Positions 10,049-54,673 of a DNA stretch of 64,000 bases are shown here, one piece after another. The notes beneath the pieces were generated by a model that was given only the letters and a program-made list of their open reading frames with translations, had not been told where the DNA came from and searched no databases. The first letter of the stretch is position 1; each line of letters opens with the position of its first letter. The position numbers and the translations under genes were made by a program. Origin of the DNA: an uncultured Chthonomonadaceae bacterium (GTDB lineage: Bacteria; Armatimonadota; Chthonomonadetes; Chthonomonadales; Chthonomonadaceae); assembly GCA_963835065.1 (NCBI GenBank), contig CAWIEK010000041.1, positions 32,001 through 96,000 of the forward strand, given 5' to 3'.

Positions 10049-10076
10049 GAAACTTTTGCTCGATACGTCCGTCTAA
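10049..10076 (+). promoter_or_regulatory. ECF-sigma-type promoter (copy A)
   Basis: GAAAC-N16-CGTCTAA. The boxes and spacing are conserved in copy B while the spacer sequence diverges. Confidence 0.6.
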
Positions 10077-10081
10077 ATACT

Positions 10082-10280
10082 AGAATAACGTCTACTATAC
10101 AGACGTTATACATACAGGAAGGGAGGTGCCAGTCCTATGTTTCACCCCTCCCGTTCGCCCTGACGCTTACGAGGCCACGACGCCTCTCTCCTACAACTTG
10201 ACACAACGAGACATCGGGCTGGAAGCGCTGCATTGCCAAGATTTCGACGATGACTCTACATACTCTTTTTTCTACATGCC
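10082..10280 (+). ncRNA. Candidate structured small RNA / micropeptide transcript (copy A)
   Basis: 127-nt core (10137-10263) has 6 mismatches and no gaps versus the reverse complement of 50452-50578. Hairpins show G-U-preserving changes and the 3' end is T-rich. Confidence 0.55.
10137..10163 (+). CDS. Candidate 8-aa micropeptide MFHPSRSP (copy A)
   Basis: SD AGGAAGGGAGGT 9 nt before ATG. Identical ORF in copy B. Confidence 0.35.
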   Translation: MFHPSRSP

Positions 10281-10400: not shown

Positions 10401-10439
10401 GCAAACACCCTGTTCCTTATTTGGAAGCAGGGCGTTTGT
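10401..10439. terminator. Imperfect hairpin, possible terminator
   Basis: GCAAACACCCTGTTCC-TTATTT-GGAAGCAGGGCGTTTGT. Confidence 0.45.
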
Positions 10440-10607: not shown

Positions 10608-11417
<810 letters not shown>

Positions 11418-15920: not shown

Positions 15921-16044
15921 AGTAGTCAGTAGTCAGTAGTCAGTAGTCAGTAGAAATACCTGCTTACTCAAAATTGTGCAGTGCGGTAACAACTTACAGG
16001 CGAGGGTTTTTCTACTGACTACTGACTACTGACTACTGACTACT
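15921..16044. repeat. Inverted heptamer arrays (AGTAGTC)n/(GACTACT)n
   Basis: 36-bp perfect inverted repeat, 15921-15956 versus 16009-16044. Confidence 0.85.
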
Positions 16045-27049: not shown

Positions 27050-27152
27050 CGCAATATGCGGCTCGTTGTGGTTCTGTTCCCGGCAAATCCCGGTAGGTTC
27101 CTTCCACGTCCAGCGCGGCCCTTGATTGTCGCGTTGTATTTCCTGCCCTCGT

Positions 27153-30100
27153 ATGGCAGAAGAAAGGAACATTGCCTTGGTAAGCAACACACAGGAAAGC
27201 GAAATCCAATCGCTTTCGCAACAACAAAGCAGAGTGGCCCGCTCCGGTTGGCTGCGCCGCGCCGCTCTGTTGACTTCGGTTTCTTTCGCGTGGAGTTTTG
27301 TGCTGGCCCCGCCTGCGCTTGCCCTCGCGCATTCCCCGCGACAAGACCGCGTCGGCGTCCGCCTGCTCACGCCGGAACAGATGCGGCGTATGTGGGGGCG
27401 GCAGACAAAGCCACAGGCCCATGCCGTTTCGGTGGCTGCCGCGCCCGGCGACACCTTCCCCTGGGAGGGCAGCGCGGGCGACGCCAACACGGGCAACGGC
27501 AACAAGCAGACGGAAATTCCCCTTGTCGGCTGGACACAGAAGGGCGGCATGCCGGTCAATCTGACGCTCACCCATAACAGCGAAACCAACCGCAATGCCG
27601 AGTTGGGCTACAAGTGGAGCCACAGCTACGACATCTACCTGATGAGCAGCGGCGGTAACAGTGGAGGAGGAACCGGCGGCAGTGGCGGCACAGGCGGTTT
27701 TGCGCAGGCAGGTACGGCTCCCAACGCGCCCGGTGGCGGCGGCGGAACGGGAGGCGGCGGCGCGTTCGCGTCGGGCAGCAATCTTACGGTTCATTGGGGC
27801 GATGACCTGTCGTACCCGTTCGCCAACAACGGCAGCAATGCGTTTGCCGCGCCGACGGGCATTCACGACACGCTGGTTCAGAACGTGGACGGCACGTTCA
27901 CGCTGACCAAAACCAGTCAGGTCAAGTACCACTTCAATGCCGCGCTGTACTGCGACAGTATCACCGACCCGAACGGCAACAGCCTCAGCATTGCCCGCAA
28001 CGCGGCAAGGTATGTCACGAGTGTCACCGACGTAAGCGGGCGCAGCCTCACCTTCGGCTATGACGGCAGCAATCGGATCACGTCCGTGACCGATCCGCTT
28101 AACCGAGTGTGGACGCTGGCGTATGATGGCAGTGGCAACCTGGCTTCGGTCAGCCTGCCGGTTCTGAACGGCGCGACCTATACCTATGCGTTCCTTTACG
28201 ACGCCAACCACTGCCTGACGGATCTGAAAACGCCGAAAGGCAATCATTCCACGTTCGGCTACAATGGGGATGGCAGCGTGGCATGGGAACAGGACGCGAT
28301 GGGCAACCAGACGGCCTTTGCCTACCAGAGCGGCCTGACAACGATCACGGACGCCAACGGCCACGCGACCACGCACACGTACACCAACGGGCTTTTGACC
28401 CGCGTGACGGACGCATTGGGCTACCACGAGGATTACCAGTACGATGCGTCCAACAACAAAACACAGGTGAGCGACAAGCGCGGCTTTGCGTGGAACTTCA
28501 CCTTCGACGGCAGTGGCAACCTGCTGACAAGCAAAGACCCCTACCTCAACACCACGACAACAGCCTACAACGCCAAGAACAAGCCGCTGACGGTCACTCT
28601 GCCGTCGGGACGGCAGACGGTCAACACTTATGACGGCAGCGGCGTTCGCGTGACGCTTGCGCAGCAGAAAGCCGCCAACGGTACAGTGGTTTCTTCCACT
28701 TCCTTCGCGTACAACGCGGACGGAACCGTTGCCGGTAAGACCGATGCCAACAGCCATACCACGAGCTACGGTTACGATGGGAATGGCAACCTGACCAGCG
28801 TGACCACGCCCCTCGGCCATGCCACCACGTTCGGCTACAATGCGCTTGGCGCGCAAACGAGCAAGACCGATGCGCTGAACCGGACGACGATCTACACCCT
28901 CGACGCCTGGAACCGCACAGTTGCCATCACGTATCCCGACAGCACCACTAAAACGCTGGCCTACGATGCGGACGGCAACCTGACCGGTTTCACGGACGCA
29001 ACCGGCACAACCACGCGCAGCTACGATGCCGACAATCGCCTGCTCTCAGAAAGCAAGAACGGCGCTGCCGTCGTCAGTCACACGTATGACGCGACGGGGC
29101 AGAAGGGCTTGCTGTCCACCACAACCGACGCCAACGGGCGGGTTCTGACATACTCCTATACGAGCCGCAATGAACTTGGCGGCGTGAGCGAAGCGGCAGG
29201 CGCGGTCAGCTACGCCTACGATGCGGACGGCCACGAAACGGGTATTAGCAACCCCAACGGAACCGTCGTCAGCAAGAGCTATGACAATGCCGGGCAGCTT
29301 ACGAGTGTGGTGAACAAGACCGGCAGCGGCAGCGTTCTGTCTTCCTTCTCTTACACGCTGGACGTGGACGGCAGGCGCGCGGCGGTTGGGGAAGCGGACG
29401 GCAGCAGCGTCAGCTATGGTTATGACGGCGCGGGGCGGCTGACAAGCGAAACCCGCAGCGGAACCGGCGCATACAGCCTGTCGTATGTGCTGGACGGGGC
29501 AGGCAACCGCCTGAGCCAGACGAGCAGCAATGGCACAACCACGTTCGCTTATGACAGCGACGACGAACTGCTGTCCACAAGCGGCGTGTTCACCAACAGC
29601 TATGGCTACAACGCCAATGGCGAGCAGACCACGCGCACACTGAACGGCACGACCTACAATCTGGCGTTCGACTTTGACGGGCAGATCAGCAGCATCGCGC
29701 AGGGCGCAAACGTGGTCAGCTTCGCCTATGATGCGGCAGGGCGGCGCGTGAGCCGGACGGCAGGCGGGACAACGACCAACTTCCTGTACGATGGCGGGCA
29801 AGTTCTGCTGGAAACGCAGGGAAGCAGCACGACAGCGACGTACACGTATGGCAACGCGCTTGTCAGGAAGGATGGCGAGTTCCCGCTCTTCGACGGACAG
29901 GGCAGCGAGCGAACGGTGACGAACAGCAGCCAATCGGTGCAGGGCAGCATCGTCTACAACGCTTTCGGGCAGACGGTTTCCAGCACCGGCAGCAGCACAA
30001 GTCCCTACCTGTACGCGGCGACAAGCGGGTACAGGAACGATGGCGATGCCGGACTGAGCCATGTGGGAGCGAGGTACTACGACGCGCAAGTAGGCCGCTT

Positions 30101-30500
30101 CATCTCCCGTGACACCTACCTTGACCAGAAGCCCTACCTCTACTGCGAACACGACCCCGTGAATCGGCTTGATGCCAATGGACATTCTTGGAAAGGATGG
30201 GGTGTGGGACTTGTAGCAGGAATTACTGTCGGTATTCTGCTCAGCGCCGCAGTAGACATCGTTACGGCAGGAGCAGGAGCGCCTGCGAACCCTGTCATTA
30301 TCGACATTTCTATCGGCGTTATCTCCGGCGGGTCTGGAGGATATGTGACAGGACAAATTGATGGGAATGTGGGGACAAGCACTCTGCAAGGCGCAATCGG
30401 CGGCGGTATCATCGGACCGATTTCCGGTGCGCTTGGTTCAGTTGGCAAACCCTTGGTCCGGGCAGTAGCAAAATTCTTTGCCCAGATCAAATTCGATTAG
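27153..30500 (+). CDS. Rhs/YD-repeat polymorphic toxin with N-terminal signal-like segment and Gly-rich hydrophobic C-terminus
   Basis: DUF6531-like NTGNGN..LGYKWSHSY, many YDxxGxL repeats and core HVGARYYDAQVGRFISRD..PYLYCEHDPVNRLDANG. The start could instead be TTG 27177. Confidence 0.92.
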   Translation: MAEERNIALVSNTQESEIQSLSQQQSRVARSGWLRRAALLTSVSFAWSFVLAPPALALAHSPRQDRVGVRLLTPEQMRRMWGRQTKPQAHAVSVAAAPGDTFPWEGSAGDANTGNGNKQTEIPLVGWTQKGGMPVNLTLTHNSETNRNAELGYKWSHSYDIYLMSSGGNSGGGTGGSGGTGGFAQAGTAPNAPGGGGGTGGGGAFASGSNLTVHWGDDLSYPFANNGSNAFAAPTGIHDTLVQNVDGTFTLTKTSQVKYHFNAALYCDSITDPNGNSLSIARNAARYVTSVTDVSGRSLTFGYDGSNRITSVTDPLNRVWTLAYDGSGNLASVSLPVLNGATYTYAFLYDANHCLTDLKTPKGNHSTFGYNGDGSVAWEQDAMGNQTAFAYQSGLTTITDANGHATTHTYTNGLLTRVTDALGYHEDYQYDASNNKTQVSDKRGFAWNFTFDGSGNLLTSKDPYLNTTTTAYNAKNKPLTVTLPSGRQTVNTYDGSGVRVTLAQQKAANGTVVSSTSFAYNADGTVAGKTDANSHTTSYGYDGNGNLTSVTTPLGHATTFGYNALGAQTSKTDALNRTTIYTLDAWNRTVAITYPDSTTKTLAYDADGNLTGFTDATGTTTRSYDADNRLLSESKNGAAVVSHTYDATGQKGLLSTTTDANGRVLTYSYTSRNELGGVSEAAGAVSYAYDADGHETGISNPNGTVVSKSYDNAGQLTSVVNKTGSGSVLSSFSYTLDVDGRRAAVGEADGSSVSYGYDGAGRLTSETRSGTGAYSLSYVLDGAGNRLSQTSSNGTTTFAYDSDDELLSTSGVFTNSYGYNANGEQTTRTLNGTTYNLAFDFDGQISSIAQGANVVSFAYDAAGRRVSRTAGGTTTNFLYDGGQVLLETQGSSTTATYTYGNALVRKDGEFPLFDGQGSERTVTNSSQSVQGSIVYNAFGQTVSSTGSSTSPYLYAATSGYRNDGDAGLSHVGARYYDAQVGRFISRDTYLDQKPYLYCEHDPVNRLDANGHSWKGWGVGLVAGITVGILLSAAVDIVTAGAGAPANPVIIDISIGVISGGSGGYVTGQIDGNVGTSTLQGAIGGGIIGPISGALGSVGKPLVRAVAKFFAQIKFD

Positions 30501-30506
30501 CAGATT

Positions 30507-30542
30507 GCCCCACCCCTATGCAGAATTGCATAGGGGTGGGGC
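30507..30542. terminator. Perfect hairpin after the rhs stop
   Basis: 16-bp stem GCCCCACCCCTATGCA/TGCATAGGGGTGGGGC, 4-nt loop, no U-tract. Confidence 0.5.
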
Positions 30543-30573
30543 CTACTAACATCAGACGGCATGTAGGTGTTAT

Positions 30574-31044
30574 ATGAGACTTCAGGTTCCAGAATTATAC
30601 GCCAAGCAGATTAAAATAAGAAGGGTAGGCTTTCTTCTTATTCTTCTATTAATATGCTGTTCACTCGCATGGCTTGTAAGTACGGCATTTTCGGTAGGAG
30701 GCTGTGCAATAACCTGTGTTGGATTAATTAACGTGATTTTGAACTATCGTAGACCTTTATTTTACGACTTAGATGATCAGGGAATTTGCCTCAGCACAGT
30801 ACAAGGAACATTAAGCTTAAATGGGCTGAATGGTTGTGTAGCAAGGTACTGGATAGATTGGAGTAAAGACCCACTTGAGGCTTTCGATCTTACTCATTGG
30901 CAACAGTTCCCTGCGCTACTTCTCGTATCTAGCCGTTTTCCGCAAGGCAGGCTCATGCCTATTTACAGGCAAGATGTAGAGCGGGTCGTCATTTTTTTAG
31001 AAACACAGGTTAGTTTACTTGCAACATGCTCAGGCAAGCATTAG
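30574..31044 (+). CDS. Putative immunity protein 1 (2 TM plus soluble domain)
   Basis: Low-GC ORF directly after rhs. Shares LDxxGIxL and HWxxxP with 31662-32114. Confidence 0.65.
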   Translation: MRLQVPELYAKQIKIRRVGFLLILLLICCSLAWLVSTAFSVGGCAITCVGLINVILNYRRPLFYDLDDQGICLSTVQGTLSLNGLNGCVARYWIDWSKDPLEAFDLTHWQQFPALLLVSSRFPQGRLMPIYRQDVERVVIFLETQVSLLATCSGKH

Positions 31045-31053
31045 GAGCGAGAG

Positions 31054-31565
31054 GCAGCAGCAATCCCTACCTGTACGCGGCGACAAGCGGGTACAGGAAC
31101 GACGGTGACGCCGGGCTGATGCACGTGGGAGCGCGGTACTACGACGCGCAGGTGGGACGCTTCCTCTCACGAGACACGTTCCTTGACCAGAAGCCTTACC
31201 TCTACTGCGAACACGATCCCGTCAACTACACCGATCCCACTGGGCATCTCAGTAAAGGTCAATGGGCCGGCCTCGTAGTTGGCGGAGCGATTATCATCGG
31301 TGTCACCGTAATAACTGGTGGCGCGGACTTGCCTGTGCTTGGAGCCATAGGAATCAACTGTGGCACAGGGGCGTTGGCAGGAACAATCGGTGGTGCGGTC
31401 CAGAGCGGCGTTGATCATGACCACAATCTGGGAGGGGACATGAGAGACGGAGCTATCCAAGGAGCCATTGGAGGCGGATTGACCGGATCACTGGGAACAG
31501 GTCCCATAGGCAAGCCGATTGTCAACTTCATTCGTGCCCTATGTAAGTTGGTCCCGATTAAGTAG
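31054..31565 (+). pseudogene. Orphan Rhs core-extension plus alternative C-terminal toxin module
   Basis: 31064-31225 repeats 30002-30163 (PYLYAATSGY...YCEHDPVN), followed by DPTG and a related Gly-rich CT. No credible start of its own. Confidence 0.85.
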
Positions 31566-33223: not shown

Positions 33224-33344
33224 AGTGGTCAGTGGGCAGTGGTCAGTGAAATGCCATCTGACTGCAAGATAGACTTGTGTGTAAGCGACAGCAAGCAGTG
33301 TCGGCGGTCTTGTCCTAACCACTGACCACTGACCACTGACCACT
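33224..33344. repeat. Inverted heptamer arrays (AGTGGTC)n/(GACCACT)n
   Basis: 33224-33248 versus 33320-33344, 24/25 complementary. Confidence 0.8.
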
Positions 33345-36969: not shown

Positions 36970-39380
36970 CTCCACCTTTCTCCTTAGTTCAATCAAAACA
37001 CTCACGAACCTTCCTGCTTCTGCTCAGTGGCTGCTGCCTGTCCCTGTCGCTTCTAACCTCCCCCGTATCTGCTCAAAACGCGCAGCAGGGAAGTCAGGGA
37101 ACAGGAAACAGGGAACAGGGAACAGTCCAATCCACAATCGAAAATCGAAAATCGAAAATCGAAAATTCCCCAACACCCTCCCAGGAATTGCCCCTCCTCC
37201 TCCTCGTGGTGCAGCGTCCGCAGGGAACGCCCGCTAAAAAAGACGACATGAACACCGCCCTGTCGCTGATGCTGCGGGCGTCCGTGCGCGAGTCGCGCAA
37301 GTACCAGGTGATCTTGTACAGCGCGGAACACCCCAGTATCCGCCGCGTCCTGCTGGAACACGCCATTGCCGCCTCGGAGTTGGCGGAGCCGATTGCGCCC
37401 GAAGCTCTGCAAAAACTGGCGAAGTTGATCGGCGCGCATGACATTTTGATGGTCAGCAGCGCGCTGGAAAAATCCGGTCTGCGTACCGATGTGCGCCTGA
37501 TGACGGACGCGGGCGCGGATACATGGATCACGCCCCTCGCGCAGCCGTTCATCGTGGACGCGCAATTGGGCAAACTGCGCCTGAAAAACGAGCAGATGCT
37601 GGCGCTGACCGTAGACGACATTGACAAGTATCTCGGCGTTCCCTCCCACCTTGCCAGCAACCTGACCAAAACCATCATCATCGGCAAGACAGACCCGAAG
37701 AAGAACAAGAACGCCAAGAACAGCAAGAACGCCAACAATCCGAAAACGAAGAGCGGCGACAACAGCGAAGACGATGCGCGAACTGCCAAAAATGGAAGCG
37801 CTTCCGAGGATGGCGGCGACAGCGCCAACGGCGGGAAGCCCACGGACCCTGCCACCGGCAACACGAACGGCGTGAACGGAACCTCCGGGCGCATAACTCG
37901 CGCGGCGGACAAGACGCAGGCAGCAGAAAAAACGCAGGCGGAAAGAGCGAACGGGAACAGCGCCGGGAACAATTCTGCCGGAAACACCAGCGGAAACAAC
38001 ACCGGCAACGCCCCCGCAAACCGTTCTGCTGACAACAATAATACCGGGAACGACACGAGCGCGGACACGGACGCGCAAACCGCAAAAACATCGGCGACAG
38101 GCAAAAGCACGCCCCGAAAAACCAACAAGCCGTCCGTGAAAATCGCGCGCAACACGCAAAAGTCGCGCGGCAACTCCGACACCACAGCCACTCCGAACAC
38201 GGCGGGCGAGGTCGGCAATGCCGGCGCAGCCAACGGTTCGGGCAATGGCGCGGGTACGCAGGGCGCGGCATCGGAGGCTAACCCGGCGGCTTTGCAGCGC
38301 GTGACCAGCGACAATCTCAAAAACAAGCCGGAAGACCGCAAAAACCAGCCGGCCATTCTGGACACGGACGCGGGCGCAAGCCTGCTTGCCGAGCCGAACA
38401 TCATTCCCCCGGTTCCGCCAACCGACAAAATTGATTACGAGGCGGCGGCGGATCGCTACCGGAAGACGGGCGACCTGTCCAACGCCATCAACTCGCTGCG
38501 GCAGGCCATCAACGAAAACCCCCGCGCCCTGAACCTGCGCAAAAAACTCATTATCGCCTATCAGGATCGGCTGCTGCCCGACCTTGCGGCTTCGGAGATT
38601 GAGCGGGCATTGGTACTGGCTCCGGGCGACGCCGACCTGACCAAGCTGCGTGCCAGTACCCTGTTCGGCAAGGGCGATACCACGAACGCCATTAAAATGC
38701 TGCGCGACGTGGTTGCCGCGCATCCCGGCGACACGTCGGGGCAGGTGGCATTGGGCGACGCGCTGCTGGCCGACGGCCAATTCGCCGACGCCCTGAGCGC
38801 GTTTGAAACGGCGGCGAAAAACGATCCCAAAAGCCCGCTTCCGCACCGCCGATTAGCGCGGGTACTGGCGGCGCGGGCAGGCAGTGACATTACGCAGTAC
38901 GCCGCGTGTCTGGGGCAGATCGAGCAGGCGCGTAAACTGACGCCGACAACCGACACCCAAACCTATCAGGGCGATTACTTTGAATTGATGCTCCTTCTGG
39001 AAACGCGCTTGAAGGACATGCTGGATCAGGTAAATGAAACATCTATGGGCGTGGGCAAACGCGCCAACGCCGACCTGATGCAGCATGCCACCGACCTGAA
39101 AGAGCGCGCCGAAGCCGCGTCTGATTTTCTGGACAAGCTGCCGCCCGCAGCGGGACAGGACGTGACCCATGCCCATTACGGACAGGGCGCGGCCTTATTG
39201 GTGCAGTCCATCGGCTACCTGCGCAAATTCATCCCCTCCAACGAAGCGCAGATCGGCAACTCCCTGCGCGCCACCCGCATTGACGCCCTGACCGAACTGA
39301 CCAACGCCCACGACCGGCTCATCGCCTCCCGCGAAGTGCTGGAAAAAGGCCGCGCCGCAACCGGCGTGTCCGGCAACTGA
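36957..39380 (+). CDS. Exported TPR protein with N/G/S/T-rich linker
   Basis: Signal-like N-terminus and TPRs (ALGDALLADGQFADALSAFE). Overlaps the upstream gene. Confidence 0.8.
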   Translation: MRQLTPPFSLVQSKHSRTFLLLLSGCCLSLSLLTSPVSAQNAQQGSQGTGNREQGTVQSTIENRKSKIENSPTPSQELPLLLLVVQRPQGTPAKKDDMNTALSLMLRASVRESRKYQVILYSAEHPSIRRVLLEHAIAASELAEPIAPEALQKLAKLIGAHDILMVSSALEKSGLRTDVRLMTDAGADTWITPLAQPFIVDAQLGKLRLKNEQMLALTVDDIDKYLGVPSHLASNLTKTIIIGKTDPKKNKNAKNSKNANNPKTKSGDNSEDDARTAKNGSASEDGGDSANGGKPTDPATGNTNGVNGTSGRITRAADKTQAAEKTQAERANGNSAGNNSAGNTSGNNTGNAPANRSADNNNTGNDTSADTDAQTAKTSATGKSTPRKTNKPSVKIARNTQKSRGNSDTTATPNTAGEVGNAGAANGSGNGAGTQGAASEANPAALQRVTSDNLKNKPEDRKNQPAILDTDAGASLLAEPNIIPPVPPTDKIDYEAAADRYRKTGDLSNAINSLRQAINENPRALNLRKKLIIAYQDRLLPDLAASEIERALVLAPGDADLTKLRASTLFGKGDTTNAIKMLRDVVAAHPGDTSGQVALGDALLADGQFADALSAFETAAKNDPKSPLPHRRLARVLAARAGSDITQYAACLGQIEQARKLTPTTDTQTYQGDYFELMLLLETRLKDMLDQVNETSMGVGKRANADLMQHATDLKERAEAASDFLDKLPPAAGQDVTHAHYGQGAALLVQSIGYLRKFIPSNEAQIGNSLRATRIDALTELTNAHDRLIASREVLEKGRAATGVSGN

Positions 39381-39382
39381 AC
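39291..39382 (+). repeat. 92-bp direct repeat, copy 1 (3' end of the TPR gene)
   Basis: 88/92 identical to 40810-40901. Confidence 0.9.
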
Positions 39383-40809: not shown

Positions 40810-40901
40810 ACCGAACTGACCAACGCCCACGACCGGCTCATCGCCTCCCGTGAGGTTCTGGAAAAAGGCCGCGCCGCAACCGGCGTTTCCGGCAACTGAA
40901 C
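40810..40901 (+). repeat. 92-bp direct repeat, copy 2 (stranded gene end)
   Basis: Encodes the same TELTNAHDRLIASREVLEKGRAATGVSGN* with 4 synonymous changes. Confidence 0.9.
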
Positions 40902-49259: not shown

Positions 49260-50354
49260 ATGCGCTATGTTCTGGGAATCGAAGGGGGGCAGGCAACGAC
49301 AACAGCCGTTATCACAGACGAAACGGGCTGTGTCCTCGGCATCGGTCAGGGAAGTTCGATGCGCCCCGGACTGGAAACAGGGGATGGCGCGCGGGCGCAG
49401 AAAGCCCTGGGTGACGCGGTTCAGGCCGCAATTCGCATGGCCGATCTGGAAAACGCGCGCATTGCCGCCGCCTGCATCCACGCTGCCGCCCCTGCTTTTG
49501 CTTACAATCCTGTTCCAAACAGCTTCGGGCGTCCAAACGCGGCAGATACCGACTCAGCGCCAAACCAACTGCGGCAAAATAACGCGCGGCGCGTCAAGGT
49601 GCTGGAACCCGATTTATTGCAAGCGGCCTGCGAAAACGTTCTGCCCGACTCGCGCCTGCTTTTTGAAACCGGGCCGCGCGTTGCCCTGTATGCCGTGACG
49701 TTTGGGCGTCCGGGTGTGGTGGTCTGCGCGGGCATCGGGGCAGTCGCGTATGGACGGAACGAACGCGGCGAACAGGCGCAAAGCGGCGGATGGGGGCGCG
49801 TGTTGGGCGATGAGGGGAGCGGCTACTGGATTGGCCGGGGGGCGCTTGCGGCCTGCTGCCGCGCTCAGGACGGCATCGAAGCGCCGACGCAGTTGGAACC
49901 CTTGCTGTTAAAGCATCTGGAAATGCCCGATTTGAACTGCGCGCGGGAAGCGATTGCCTGTAATGCCTTAACGCCCGCCGACATTGCCGCGCTGTCGGAA
50001 ATCGTCAGCCGCGCCGCCGCGCAGGGTGACAAGGCCGCGCGCCGCATTTTGCGCGAAGCGGGAAAAGAACTGGCATTGAGCGCGCAGGCCACCTTGCGCC
50101 GCCTGAACATGGAGCAGGAACCTGTTGTCGTGGGAACGATGGGCGGCGTGTTTCGGGCGGGGCGGGCGGTGCTGCGCGCGTTCCGCGAAACAGTCAAACA
50201 GGCCGCGCCCAACGCGACGATTGTGCCTGCCCGCGTCCCGCCCTGTGTGGGAGCCGCCCTGATCGCGCTGGAAGCCATTGACGTTCCCCTGCGCGAAGAA
50301 TTGTTTGCGAACCTGGAAACCCACCTGCCCCGTCTCGCCGCAGTAAAGGCTTGA
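49260..50354 (+). CDS. BadF/BadG-type sugar kinase (N-acetylglucosamine kinase-like)
   Basis: LGIEGGQATT and GGWGRVLGDEGSGYWIG. Confidence 0.88.
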   Translation: MRYVLGIEGGQATTTAVITDETGCVLGIGQGSSMRPGLETGDGARAQKALGDAVQAAIRMADLENARIAAACIHAAAPAFAYNPVPNSFGRPNAADTDSAPNQLRQNNARRVKVLEPDLLQAACENVLPDSRLLFETGPRVALYAVTFGRPGVVVCAGIGAVAYGRNERGEQAQSGGWGRVLGDEGSGYWIGRGALAACCRAQDGIEAPTQLEPLLLKHLEMPDLNCAREAIACNALTPADIAALSEIVSRAAAQGDKAARRILREAGKELALSAQATLRRLNMEQEPVVVGTMGGVFRAGRAVLRAFRETVKQAAPNATIVPARVPPCVGAALIALEAIDVPLREELFANLETHLPRLAAVKA

Positions 50355-50435
50355 ACGCTGATAGATCTTAGAGCGCAAGGGTATTTTAGGTTCGTAAATC
50401 TATCCTTCCCGAATCGGTGGAAGCGTTGGACAAGC

Positions 50436-50628
50436 GGCAGGTAGAAAAAAGGTATGTAGAGTCATCGTCGAAATCTTGGCAATACAGCGCTTCCAGCCCG
50501 ATGTCTCATTGTGTCTGGTTGTAGGAGAGAGGCGTCGTGACCTCGCAAGCGTCAGGGCGAACGGGAGGGGTGAAACATGGCTCTGCACCTCCCTTCCTAT
50601 GGATAACGCCTTGTAGTAGACGTATGTA
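50436..50628 (-). ncRNA. Candidate structured small RNA / micropeptide transcript (copy B)
   Basis: Inverted homolog of 10082-10280. It points at the 3' end of a convergent gene, so it leads no downstream CDS. Confidence 0.55.
50552..50578 (-). CDS. Candidate 8-aa micropeptide MFHPSRSP (copy B)
   Basis: SD AGGAAGGGAGGT 8 nt before ATG. Identical to copy A. Confidence 0.35.
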   Translation of the reverse strand: MFHPSRSP

Positions 50629-50632
50629 CTGT

Positions 50633-50661
50633 ATAGACGGCTGTGTGGTACCAAAGGTTCA
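50633..50661 (-). promoter_or_regulatory. ECF-sigma-type promoter (copy B)
   Basis: TGAACC-N16-CGTCTAT on the minus strand. Confidence 0.6.
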
Positions 50662-50979
50662 CTCTTTTCGCGTTGTTTGGCTCTTTTTTCTGTTTCTTTG
50701 TTTACGGGCTGATTGCTGTTGGCGTCGTGCAAGGCAGGCGAGAATCTAATCGGTTTTTCGGTGCGCTACAGCCCAAACTTTTTCGCGCCAACAATGAATT
50801 TCTTTGCTGTAGGGGCGCTTGCTTGCTGCGCCCGATTCGCCTGCGCGGGTACGAGTTGTCCGACAATGCTTGACGCGAAAACAGGTTGTCAGGCGTATAA
50901 TAGATTGTGCGCGAAATCACAAATTTTTAGATTTTCAGCTTTCAAGTTTCAAAAAGTAAGGGGCATGCCGGTTTAGCCT

Positions 50980-52626
50980 ATGGAAACGCACTGGGCCATT
51001 GATATGGGGACGACCAACACGCTGATCGCCAAGTGGGTTGGAACACACGCTGTTACCGTCGCATTAGAGGAACTTGCAGAATACGAACCGGCCTGGCGAA
51101 CGCCGCTGATTCCTTCCGCTATCTACTTTCAGGACGAAAAACGCGCGATTATCGGCAGGCCCGCGCTTGCCGCCCGCGAATTTATGCACGGCGCGGACAT
51201 GCAGATGATGGGGCCGCTCGCCCGCTCCTTCAAGAAAACATTGGCTCGCGCCAGTCAGCAATCTGTCGCGCAGGTCGGGTCGCAGTCCATATCGGCGCGG
51301 CAATGCGCAACGGTTTTCCTGAAAGAGCTGCTGGAAGCCAGTGGAGAGTATGAGCGGCAGCGCGCCGACCCGCACCAGACCAATGTGCAGAAAATCCTCC
51401 GCGCCCTGCGCTGGTGGCGCAAGGAGGGGCAGGTCACGGATTTGACCATGACCGTTCCTGTAGAAAGTTACGAGCCGTACCGGGCGGAACTGTCGCAAAT
51501 CGCGGGCAAACTGGGAATTTCGCGCAGCCGCTTCCGTACTCTGGATGAACCCGTTGCCGCCGCATTGGGCTACGGCGTGGATTTGACGGACGAAAAGCAC
51601 ATCATGGTGGTGGACTTCGGCGGCGGCACGCTCGATCTCGCCATTGTCCGCACCCATCCGCCCACGTCGAGCGGCGGCAAGGACGCGGTAGGCCAGCACC
51701 GCGCCACGCTGCTGGCGGCGCGCGGAGCCAACTACGGCGGCGAAACCATTGACGGCTGGATCGCCGATCTGGGCTGTTCGCGGCTGATGGCGCATCAGGA
51801 TACCCTGCGCCCCATGCTGCTCAGTCAGGCCGAAGCAATCAAAAAAGACCTGAGCAACAAAGCGGCGGTATCGGACAGCAGTTATTTTTTGCTGCAGGGC
51901 GGCGGGCGCATCGAAGTCAACCGGCAGGACTTCCTCGACATGCTGGAAGAGCGCGGCCTGTACAAAACGCTGGAGATTTTGTCCGACGCCACGCTCGACG
52001 ACTGCAAGCACGAGATCAGCGAAGCGCAATTGGACGCCATTCTGCTTGTCGGCGGTTCTACGCTGCTGCCGGGCGTCCGCGAACTGTTTGAGCGCCTGTT
52101 CGGTCCGCAGCGCGTCCACTACTGGGAACCGTTTGAAGCCGTTGTCAAGGGCGCGGCGGTGTTCGGCGCGGGCTTCAGCGTGGACCAGATCGTACACCAC
52201 GATTACGCCATTCGCGTTTATAATGACAGCCAGCAGCGTCCCGAATACGAGCGATTGGTCAAGCGCGGCACCGGCTACCCGACGCCCAACCCGTTTGAAA
52301 CGCGCTATTACGCCGTGACGGAAGGCCAGCAGTTGTTCCGGCTTCCCATTTGCGAGGTCGGGTACGGCGGGCGGGTCAGCCTGCCCTGGAGCAAGCGCAT
52401 CAACGGCAACGAATACTGGCTGCCGACGGGACAGGAGGAGGGCGAGTGCGTGATTACGCTCAACGAAGGCGACGCCCTGCGCCTGGCTCCCCCCGGTTCG
52501 GGAACGCAGGCGCGGCTGCGGATTGACTTCACCATTGACGCCAACCGCTACCTGTGCGCCACTATCCACGACTTGCAGCGGCAGCGCGACCTGCGCACCG
52601 AAGAGCGCGTCGTAAAACTGCGCTGA
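50980..52626 (+). CDS. Hsp70-family protein (atypical; no canonical DnaK substrate-binding domain)
   Basis: AIDMGTTNT, DEPVAAALGYG, VVDFGGGTLD and LVGGST. Confidence 0.88.
   Translation: METHWAIDMGTTNTLIAKWVGTHAVTVALEELAEYEPAWRTPLIPSAIYFQDEKRAIIGRPALAAREFMHGADMQMMGPLARSFKKTLARASQQSVAQVGSQSISARQCATVFLKELLEASGEYERQRADPHQTNVQKILRALRWWRKEGQVTDLTMTVPVESYEPYRAELSQIAGKLGISRSRFRTLDEPVAAALGYGVDLTDEKHIMVVDFGGGTLDLAIVRTHPPTSSGGKDAVGQHRATLLAARGANYGGETIDGWIADLGCSRLMAHQDTLRPMLLSQAEAIKKDLSNKAAVSDSSYFLLQGGGRIEVNRQDFLDMLEERGLYKTLEILSDATLDDCKHEISEAQLDAILLVGGSTLLPGVRELFERLFGPQRVHYWEPFEAVVKGAAVFGAGFSVDQIVHHDYAIRVYNDSQQRPEYERLVKRGTGYPTPNPFETRYYAVTEGQQLFRLPICEVGYGGRVSLPWSKRINGNEYWLPTGQEEGECVITLNEGDALRLAPPGSGTQARLRIDFTIDANRYLCATIHDLQRQRDLRTEERVVKLR

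Positions 52627-54599: not shown

Positions 54600-54673
<74 letters not shown>

Follow-up and report, generated by a model that had tools for sequence, protein, structure and literature searches.

A dispersed small gene with a strong Shine-Dalgarno sequence and a proline-stop mini-ORF, a candidate ribosome-trapping RNA, in a Chthonomonadaceae genome

The stretch of DNA analysed here (64,000 nucleotides; the window) carries two copies, A and B, of a short conserved unit. The neighbourhoods of this unit support the view that it is a free-standing, self-contained small gene and not a cis-leader, and a profile search with its core finds 162 intact dispersed copies in the 8.0-Mb genome. Our preferred reading, to which we assign a probability of roughly 45%, is that the unit encodes an ECF-induced RNA that would trap ribosomes at a dose set by copy number. 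Stress would switch on the predicted ECF promoter, provided that transcription does start from the motif that we find; a very strong Shine-Dalgarno (SD) sequence would then load a ribosome onto the mini-ORF, and the ribosome would stall at the proline-stop codon against a downstream hairpin (P1). Ribosomes trapped in this way would slow translation, presumably in proportion to copy number, and the structured 3′ domain is predicted either to make the RNA more stable or to touch a protein or the stalled ribosome. Such a scheme would imply a function in stress or dormancy.

Results

Architecture of the unit in the window

Copy B, a minus-strand unit, has on one side a gene for a BadF/NagK-type sugar kinase (49260..50354, plus strand; Pfam PF01869) and on the other a gene for an Hsp70-like protein (50980..52626, plus strand; PF00012), both outside the unit. 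As a sequence-only reading had described, its minus-strand ORF (50578–50552) points at the 3′ end of the convergent kinase gene, whose stop (50354) faces the unit from about 100 nt away, and reads away from the divergent Hsp70-like gene. Upstream of the promoter are phased A-tracts (50661..50703), UP-element-like and predicted to bend the DNA. These are followed by a predicted ECF-type −35 box, GAACCTTT (50653..50660), a predicted −10 box, CGTCTA (50633..50639), both from motif alignment, and a second conserved GTCTAC motif directly past the predicted transcription start (50616..50623). The very strong SD, GGAAGGGAGG(TG) (50588..50597; judged by hybrid energy with the genome's own anti-SD), precedes a mini-ORF encoding MFHPSRSP-stop (50552..50578), an instance of the family rule R/H/L-x-Pro-stop. 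Beyond a 7-nt spacer (50545..50551), fixed in length and variable in sequence, come the 5-bp hairpin P1 (50529..50544; from alignment pairing and the single-sequence minimum free energy fold), a C/A-rich unpaired linker of 20 to 24 nt (50508..50528), and a long stem, P2/P3 (50459..50507), with the invariant apical segment GCGCUGYAUUGCCA (50477–50490). The unit has a sharp conserved end, CUCUACAUA, and then a U-rich tract (50445..50461), with the conserved core ending at 50453; all of these features are on the minus strand. We found no canonical terminator after copy B. Two features were absent from the two-copy view: the number of copies, and a decayed right terminal inverted repeat of an ISAzo13-family insertion sequence beyond copy B (50386..50413, minus strand), which matches the end of intact ISAzo13 elements. 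The same intergenic gap contains a short palindromic REP-like repeat (50796–50830) with about nine matches in the genome.

Copy A (plus strand) has the same layout, with predicted −35 (10049–10056) and −10 (10070–10076) boxes, second GTCTAC motif (10088–10095), SD (10117–10126), mini-ORF MFHPSRSP-stop (10137–10163), and P1, linker, P2/P3 and conserved end (10171..10262). The two copies are 92% alike over 141 nt, far above chance. Copy A is followed, as the earlier reading had it, by a further hairpin (10401–10439, plus strand; −21.6 kcal/mol, z −5.4, 0 of 200 shuffles equally stable) that is locus-specific, single-copy in the genome and not in the repeated unit; the SDR gene then starts at 10608, 345 nt past the end of copy A (10262). 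The claim that the longer GTG ORFs over the two copies run in different frames also held: they start 11 nt (A) and 10 nt (B) 5′ of the ATG, and their 155-aa and 62-aa products are unlike.

Other repeats in the window include intergenic heptamer tandem repeats arranged as inverted arms (15921–16044, 33224–33344 and 54600–54673), similar runs of which occur in many unit copies, in the 5′ leader and the 3′ tail, and a 92-nt repeat, 96% alike, at a TPR gene end and in the region after a glyoxalase gene (39291–39382 and 40810–40901). A gene for a 1124-aa RHS-repeat protein (27126–31565) has its 3′ region repeated at 87% about 1 kb downstream (29992–30163 versus 31054–31225), an arrangement that resembles an orphan toxin module.

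The unit is intact, numerous and, among the genomes searched, found only in the genus

Nearly all copies (160/162) cover at least 140 of the 152 profile positions. The lowest score is 118 bits, and nothing in the genome falls between this score and the profile threshold, that is, we find no decayed core fragments. All 162 copies retain the apical loop, P1 and the 3′ end motif. Near-identical copies are absent save for three pairs with shared flanking duplications; the copies are mosaics. Two congeners (Chthonomonadaceae) carry 13 (G001) and about 40 (G002) copies. Outside the genus, a DNA search of 58 relatives and a covariance-model search of 98 relatives, with 36 candidates scored per genome, both of limited sensitivity, gave 0 genomes with the unit; among the GTDB pattern matches listed, the 10 of 40 outside the family Chthonomonadaceae were all chance, as were three viral matches and one metagenome match. 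In DNA contigs of four public runs, the core has more than 100 times the depth of its flanks, a depth that does not equal copy number, and contigs of one run reach into copy B from both flanks.

A predicted ECF-type promoter belongs to the unit

Upstream of the cores is the motif GAACC(T/C)TT-N17-GTCTAA, with a spacing of 17 to 19 in 145/145 matched copies, which we take to be the promoter of an ECF-type sigma factor. The A-tracts are centred at about −60, −49, −39 and −29 relative to the GTCTA box (145 aligned copies). The motif is linked to a core in 157/159 matches, and of the genome's 161 best-scoring motif sites, 148 fall inside units. The genome encodes 57 sigma factors. Natural controls for expression are available in both directions: one locus has promoter and leader with no core (G000:C54:109038–109134, G000 being this genome), and three copies (h59, h145 and h150) have cores whose promoter is lost or displaced. 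Some congener copies use a different promoter. In G001, the alternative promoter and hairpin leader of five copies also precede a gene for a 253-aa membrane protein that has no core (L145:1921–3000, contig C3); this protein has no Pfam match, and its N-terminal His motif resembles those of nickel/cobalt transporters. One G001 subfamily may have borrowed a metal-responsive leader.

Selection on the mini-ORF acts on its proline-stop end

The SD of the unit is extreme. Its hybrid energy with the genome's own anti-SD has a median of −15.3 kcal/mol (158 copies), and an equally strong SD is found in 0.09% of 4292 called genes, which puts it in the top 0.1%. Folding predictions for full-length transcripts (133 copies), however, give the SD a median unpaired probability of 0.05, its partner being mostly the ORF about 20 nt downstream, and this counts against the trap reading.

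An in-frame ATG/GTG-to-stop ORF follows in 154/162 copies (103 of 8 aa and 39 of 9 aa); the eight copies left out of the ORF counts comprise four frameshifted copies, two with ATT starts and two missed by the regular expression. The last codon is proline in 154/154. Residue −3 is arginine in 143, histidine in 6 and leucine in 5; the ending is Ser-Pro-stop in 114/154 and Pro-Pro-stop in 36/154, and CCC-UGA closes 138/154. The codons are common ones. The suggestion that only MFHPSRSP is conserved is correct for the A/B pair and fails genome-wide, where this peptide is encoded by 49/154 translatable copies among more than 60 different peptides.

The congeners separate codon from amino acid. In their 54 distinct copies, the final residue is proline in 52, with all four codons used, and residue −3 is arginine in 45, with four codons, or leucine in 8; the stops are TAA (29), TGA (24) and TAG (1). 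Across homologs, then, the in-frame Pro-stop persists while the identity of the stop codon and the ORF length do not. Across the genus the peptides are 8 to 16 aa long and constrained in their last three residues alone, and the distance from ATG to stop is a multiple of three in 75 of 79 distinct sequences. An R/H-x-P C-terminus occurs in only 38 of 4973 called genes. Comparison of the copies shows, at the level of sequence variation, that selection acts at the translation level on R/H/L-x-Pro-stop.

Because the SD is extreme, the N-terminus free, R/H-x-Pro placed before any of the stops and a hairpin held at fixed distance, the arrangement suggests a ribosome parked at termination. The translation-level selection, the rank of the SD, the fixed 7 nt and the conserved structure all favour a ribosome trap, as do a payload better kept than the ends of its vehicle (see below) and the lack of core fragments. 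EF-P, which is present in all three genomes, speaks against one.

A structured 3′ domain lies at a fixed distance from the stop codon

The distance from stop to P1 is 7 nt in 149/154 copies here and in 52/54 congener copies, with variable spacer sequence. A distance of 7 nt places P1 at the ribosome's mRNA entry site. The structure was tested against 50 of 59 available sequences. Over P1, linker, P2 and P3, 92.6% of cells are paired, compared with 89.8% in shuffles and 38 to 50% in slid controls; P1 is paired in 100% of cells with one A-U to U-A change, P2 in 83.8% and P3 in 98.4%. Five pairs have two-sided changes; as the alignment consists of related sequences and also served to draw the structure, this covariation is support rather than proof. 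Single-sequence folds of A and B yield the same structure, and their cores do not exceed shuffles in stability (z −0.5 and +1.2). The variation in G-U pairs fits the ORF strand, which settles the strand in the sense first proposed; an RNA from the opposite strand folds no better and was rejected. Rfam gave 0 matches in the window and 0 at E ≤ 10 over copy B, and otherwise only chance or below-threshold matches.

These data bear on a second reading, in which the structured 3′ RNA is itself the effector and binds or sponges a protein through its invariant loop, while the stalled ribosome only protects against 5′ decay or couples RNA level to translation. The apical loop is invariant in 162/162 copies and across the three genomes, and a weak folding energy together with strong covariation suggests a bound partner. 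An SD ranked in the top 0.1%, however, is more than protection calls for, the genes within 3 kb of the 162 loci included no partner protein, and the P1 loop, linker and apical loop have no 16S rRNA complementarity beyond that of shuffles. We regard an RNA effector as unlikely, although it retains appreciable weight.

Copies are spaced along the chromosome according to their orientation

Copies avoid one another. Only 4 of 105 gaps between copies are below 10 kb, against a null median of 27, and 0 of 1000 placements gave so low a count. The median gap depends on relative orientation, being 21 kb for head-to-head (n = 27), 36 kb for tandem (n = 58) and 48 kb for back-to-back pairs (n = 20; p 0.0007; permutation 0/2000), as if each copy excluded others over about 10 kb downstream and about 24 kb upstream. 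The flanks are also asymmetric. DNA 0.4 to 3.4 kb upstream is lower in GC in 109/146 copies, beyond control gene ends, and the effect fades by 6 kb; at 20 loci chosen because their upstream gaps are long, the genes in these gaps are of PIN, HNH, Uma2 and ankyrin types or are orphans. For G002 copies, the upstream flank has no match in this genome in 14/29 and the downstream flank in 4/29. We saw no orientation bias relative to regional coding strand or GC skew (83 versus 75). Junction turnover is lower at copies than at control gaps when counted by anchor (4/26 versus 151/332, p 0.003), a difference that is only suggestive because the count by junction gives p 0.07 (2/21 versus 76/257). As the assembly is fragmented (71 contigs), the spacing and flank patterns need a closed genome.

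A product acting purely in trans does not explain this spacing, and a diffusible trap does not predict its polarity; the action in trans that the sequence-only reading envisaged is plausible and incomplete, in that selection on the act of translation and orientation-dependent spacing suggest a local effect as well. One could suppose that each copy acts locally and nothing more, with induced transcription and a parked ribosome shaping supercoiling or domains, or with antisense read-through silencing convergent genes. The scarcity of short gaps, the ordered medians, the low-GC upstream DNA and the lack of a canonical terminator after copy B fit such action. Yet the positions are mostly species-specific (a site common with this genome is clear for 9/40 G002 copies and 1/11 G001 copies), the neighbours are unrelated, and the invariant loop would be left unexplained. 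We consider purely local action improbable.

Two unrelated insertion-sequence shells carry part of the family

At one locus the G002 flanks are joined in an exact empty site, where this genome has a 476-bp insert flanked by 10-bp direct repeats and bounded by imperfect inverted repeats. An ISAs1-type left end is present on 18/162 copies, and both ends are found by pattern in 13, of which one is doubtful; 10-bp target duplications in ISAs1-type copies are exact in five and have one mismatch in three. Their 19-bp terminal repeat is also found at both ends of an intact ISAs1 element at G002:C4:225500–226770, and no intact ISAs1 partner was among the pattern matches in this genome. An ISAzo13-type right end lies 3′ of 40/162 copies, copy B included, and a left end 5′ of 6/162, and 12 further copies keep part of an ISAzo13-type tail. 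Two intact ISAzo13 elements (G000:C53:451920–453288 and C41:162050–163417) encode their transposase in two parts (112 + 312 aa), and elsewhere the genome contains at least nine empty ISAzo13 derivatives of 80 to 130 bp. About 75 copies lie within ends of these two unrelated families, while about 87 of 162, copy A included, have no recognisable shell; copy B has only the right end. Part of the family fits the definition of a MITE (miniature transposable element with inverted repeats), and the family as a whole does not, since its members are not all bounded by both ends. For 15 other congener copies, divergence was too great for an empty-site junction to be located.

In ten ISAs1-type units, the SD/start and core windows are 88 to 94% alike, compared with 82 to 84% for the inverted-repeat windows and 73 to 79% for the left flank. 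By this sequence comparison, the payload changes more slowly than the ends on which transposition depends.

The unit could in principle be neutral or selfish MITE cargo, conserved by gene conversion among copies. Its ISAs1- and ISAzo13-type ends, target duplications, empty site and mosaic copies are what such cargo would have, and the available portions of two reports (PMC5896051, PMC10969869) describe MITEs that contain promoters, sRNAs and small ORFs. Conversion, however, makes letters uniform and gives no preference to changes that are synonymous, replace one stop with another, come as 3-nt indels or restore pairs, and neutral cargo does not account for ends that diverge faster than their contents, for one cargo in two unrelated shells or for the many shell-less copies. 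We judge it quite improbable as an account of the family.

Searches for other mobile partners gave none linked to the cores. IS110, reverse transcriptase (RT) and TnpB candidates were rejected: an IS110 transposase occurs 0 times in this genome and G001 and once in G002, with no core nearby. For IS91, a search for a Y2 transposase gave matches in 0/3 genomes and none in the control genomes either. An integron cassette or dif-like site was rejected; the only upstream integrase that we checked resembles Xer and scores below the integron cut-off, and there is no repeat enrichment more than 500 nt upstream. Separately, an RT of 476 to 481 aa beside a SWIM-BRCT gene (L147, L148 and L149), an arrangement that looks retron-like to us, is conserved in all three genomes, and a second RT adjoins Cas1 (L146); no core is near either RT.

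The unit is free-standing

Only 1/162 copies overlaps a gene (gene calls made for this analysis). The downstream gene is convergent in 100/160 and same-strand in 60/160 (binomial p 0.002), and the upstream gene is divergent for 94 copies and same-strand for 60, with the remainder at contig ends. No neighbour protein family is common to more than 13/162 loci (within 3 kb). The orthologous kinase–Hsp70 gap is short and has no unit in both congeners. Because most copies face a convergent gene and share no common neighbour family, the unit is not a cis-leader, as had been proposed from copy B, and comparison of gene neighbourhoods accordingly turned up no single gene class downstream.

A cis-acting leader or attenuator of the tnaC/pheL type, or a +1 frameshift cassette, is refuted for the family as a whole, although single loci could be co-opted: Pro-stop ends and CCC-UGA are known pausing and shifting sites (PMC3082878, as far as its accessible text goes) and a minority of downstream genes are on the same strand, but most copies face a convergent gene, the congeners use CCA, CCG or CCT with TAA, copy B has a stop in the +1 frame, and linker length varies by non-multiples of three. 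A long ORF or +1 frameshift product was rejected because the frame is not conserved. That the released peptide is the product, the other option first offered, is just as remote: the ORF is intact in nearly all copies, but the peptides are too numerous, and too free in N-terminus and length, for more than the C-terminal x-x-Pro-stop and the 7-nt hairpin distance to have been kept.

Discussion

The known system closest to the proposed ribosome trap is the CreT RNA. In the available part of the report on the Pseudomonas aeruginosa 'proline-codon toxin' (bioRxiv 10.64898/2026.06.02.729485), an SD, a mini-ORF ending Pro-Pro-stop and a hairpin are all needed, the RNA is bacteriostatic and inhibitory in vitro, the distance from ORF to hairpin is dispensable and the hairpin sequence is free. 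Our unit resembles CreT (the same preprint and, for the haloarchaeal CreT, the accessible portion of PMC8501985) in its strong SD, mini-ORF ending Pro-stop and downstream hairpin and, on the proposed reading, in that the RNA and its translation would matter and the peptide would not. It differs in having 13 to 162 copies in place of one, its own ECF-type promoter motif and carriage by insertion-sequence ends. It also differs in its code: mostly Ser-Pro-stop with arginine at −3 and common codons, where CreT has two consecutive rare or proline codons, and this difference weighs against a trap, CreT needing two prolines. Finally, the spacing in the unit is fixed at 7 nt, and its 90-nt 3′ domain is conserved in sequence. 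Because distance and hairpin sequence are both conserved here, unlike in CreT, this domain probably has a function beyond protection. The greater conservation is a point against a plain trap and one for an RNA effector, since the CreT hairpin tolerates sequence change and this one does not.

The unit does not qualify as a CreT, as our comparison found no CRISPR-repeat-like CreA and no cas linkage. Two repeat types and the 26 spacers parsed from part of the arrays gave, against the copies, best matches of 10 to 15 nt (E 0.1 or worse). One copy (L109; G000:C63:58338–59972) has a CRISPR array 435 nt away, with no sequence link.

Arrest peptides offer a second comparison. Stalling at R/HxPP (PMC10951233) and tmRNA tagging at Pro-stop (PMC3082878) are described in the available sections of these papers, and both lend the trap support. 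Arginine or histidine two residues before a P-site proline is shared with the RAPP/RxPP peptides ApdA, ApdP and SecM (PMC10951233), and proline before the stop codon with the TnaC and PheL leaders (PMC3082878), as far as the available text of each goes. Those peptides, by contrast, lead a downstream gene, and RAPP, as described there, needs proline or glycine in the A site, where the unit has a stop, a further argument against a trap that works in the same way; the peptides here are also mostly 8 to 9 aa and variable. With a stop in the A site and no regulated downstream gene, the unit is not a member of the RAPP class.

Prokaryotic MITEs such as Coxiella QMITE1/2 and Neisseria Correia elements, in the accessible descriptions (PMC5896051, PMC10969869), are likewise non-autonomous, intergenic and present in tens to hundreds of copies, with inverted repeats and target duplications. 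The unit is unlike them in having one cargo in two shells, a cargo better kept than its ends, no decayed cores, about half of its copies shell-less, and copies evenly and polarly spaced. Among other systems, IS110/IS1111 bridge RNAs, IS91/ISCR ends, TnpB/IscB omega RNAs and retron RNAs are short structured RNA-like DNA tied to mobile elements. Unlike bridge, omega and retron RNAs, the unit has no linked IS110 or RT partner and no Rfam match. Our search of the published literature, whose coverage takes in few subscription journals, returned no description of the unit family.

If the ribosome-trap reading is right, a CreT-like proline-stop RNA can serve the host outside CRISPR, with transposons having multiplied it into a translation brake of 160 copies that one sigma factor controls. 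The unit is small and cloneable and comes with natural synonymous, stop-codon and structural variants, so that stalling at termination and the action of an entry-site hairpin are directly testable. It also provides a rare case of MITE cargo under stronger selection than MITE ends, and the orientation-dependent spacing is a chromosome-scale pattern as yet unexplained. A bolder proposal, which we hold to be doubtful, is that the units constitute a new bacterial gene class, in which a ribosome-trapping RNA makes up nearly the whole regulon of one ECF sigma factor, its dose tuned to 162 copies by insertion-sequence hitch-hiking and its loci spaced by polar exclusion. Were this true, a single sigma factor would halt translation genome-wide, for example on drying, and the loci would give structure to the chromosome and gather foreign DNA at their promoter side.
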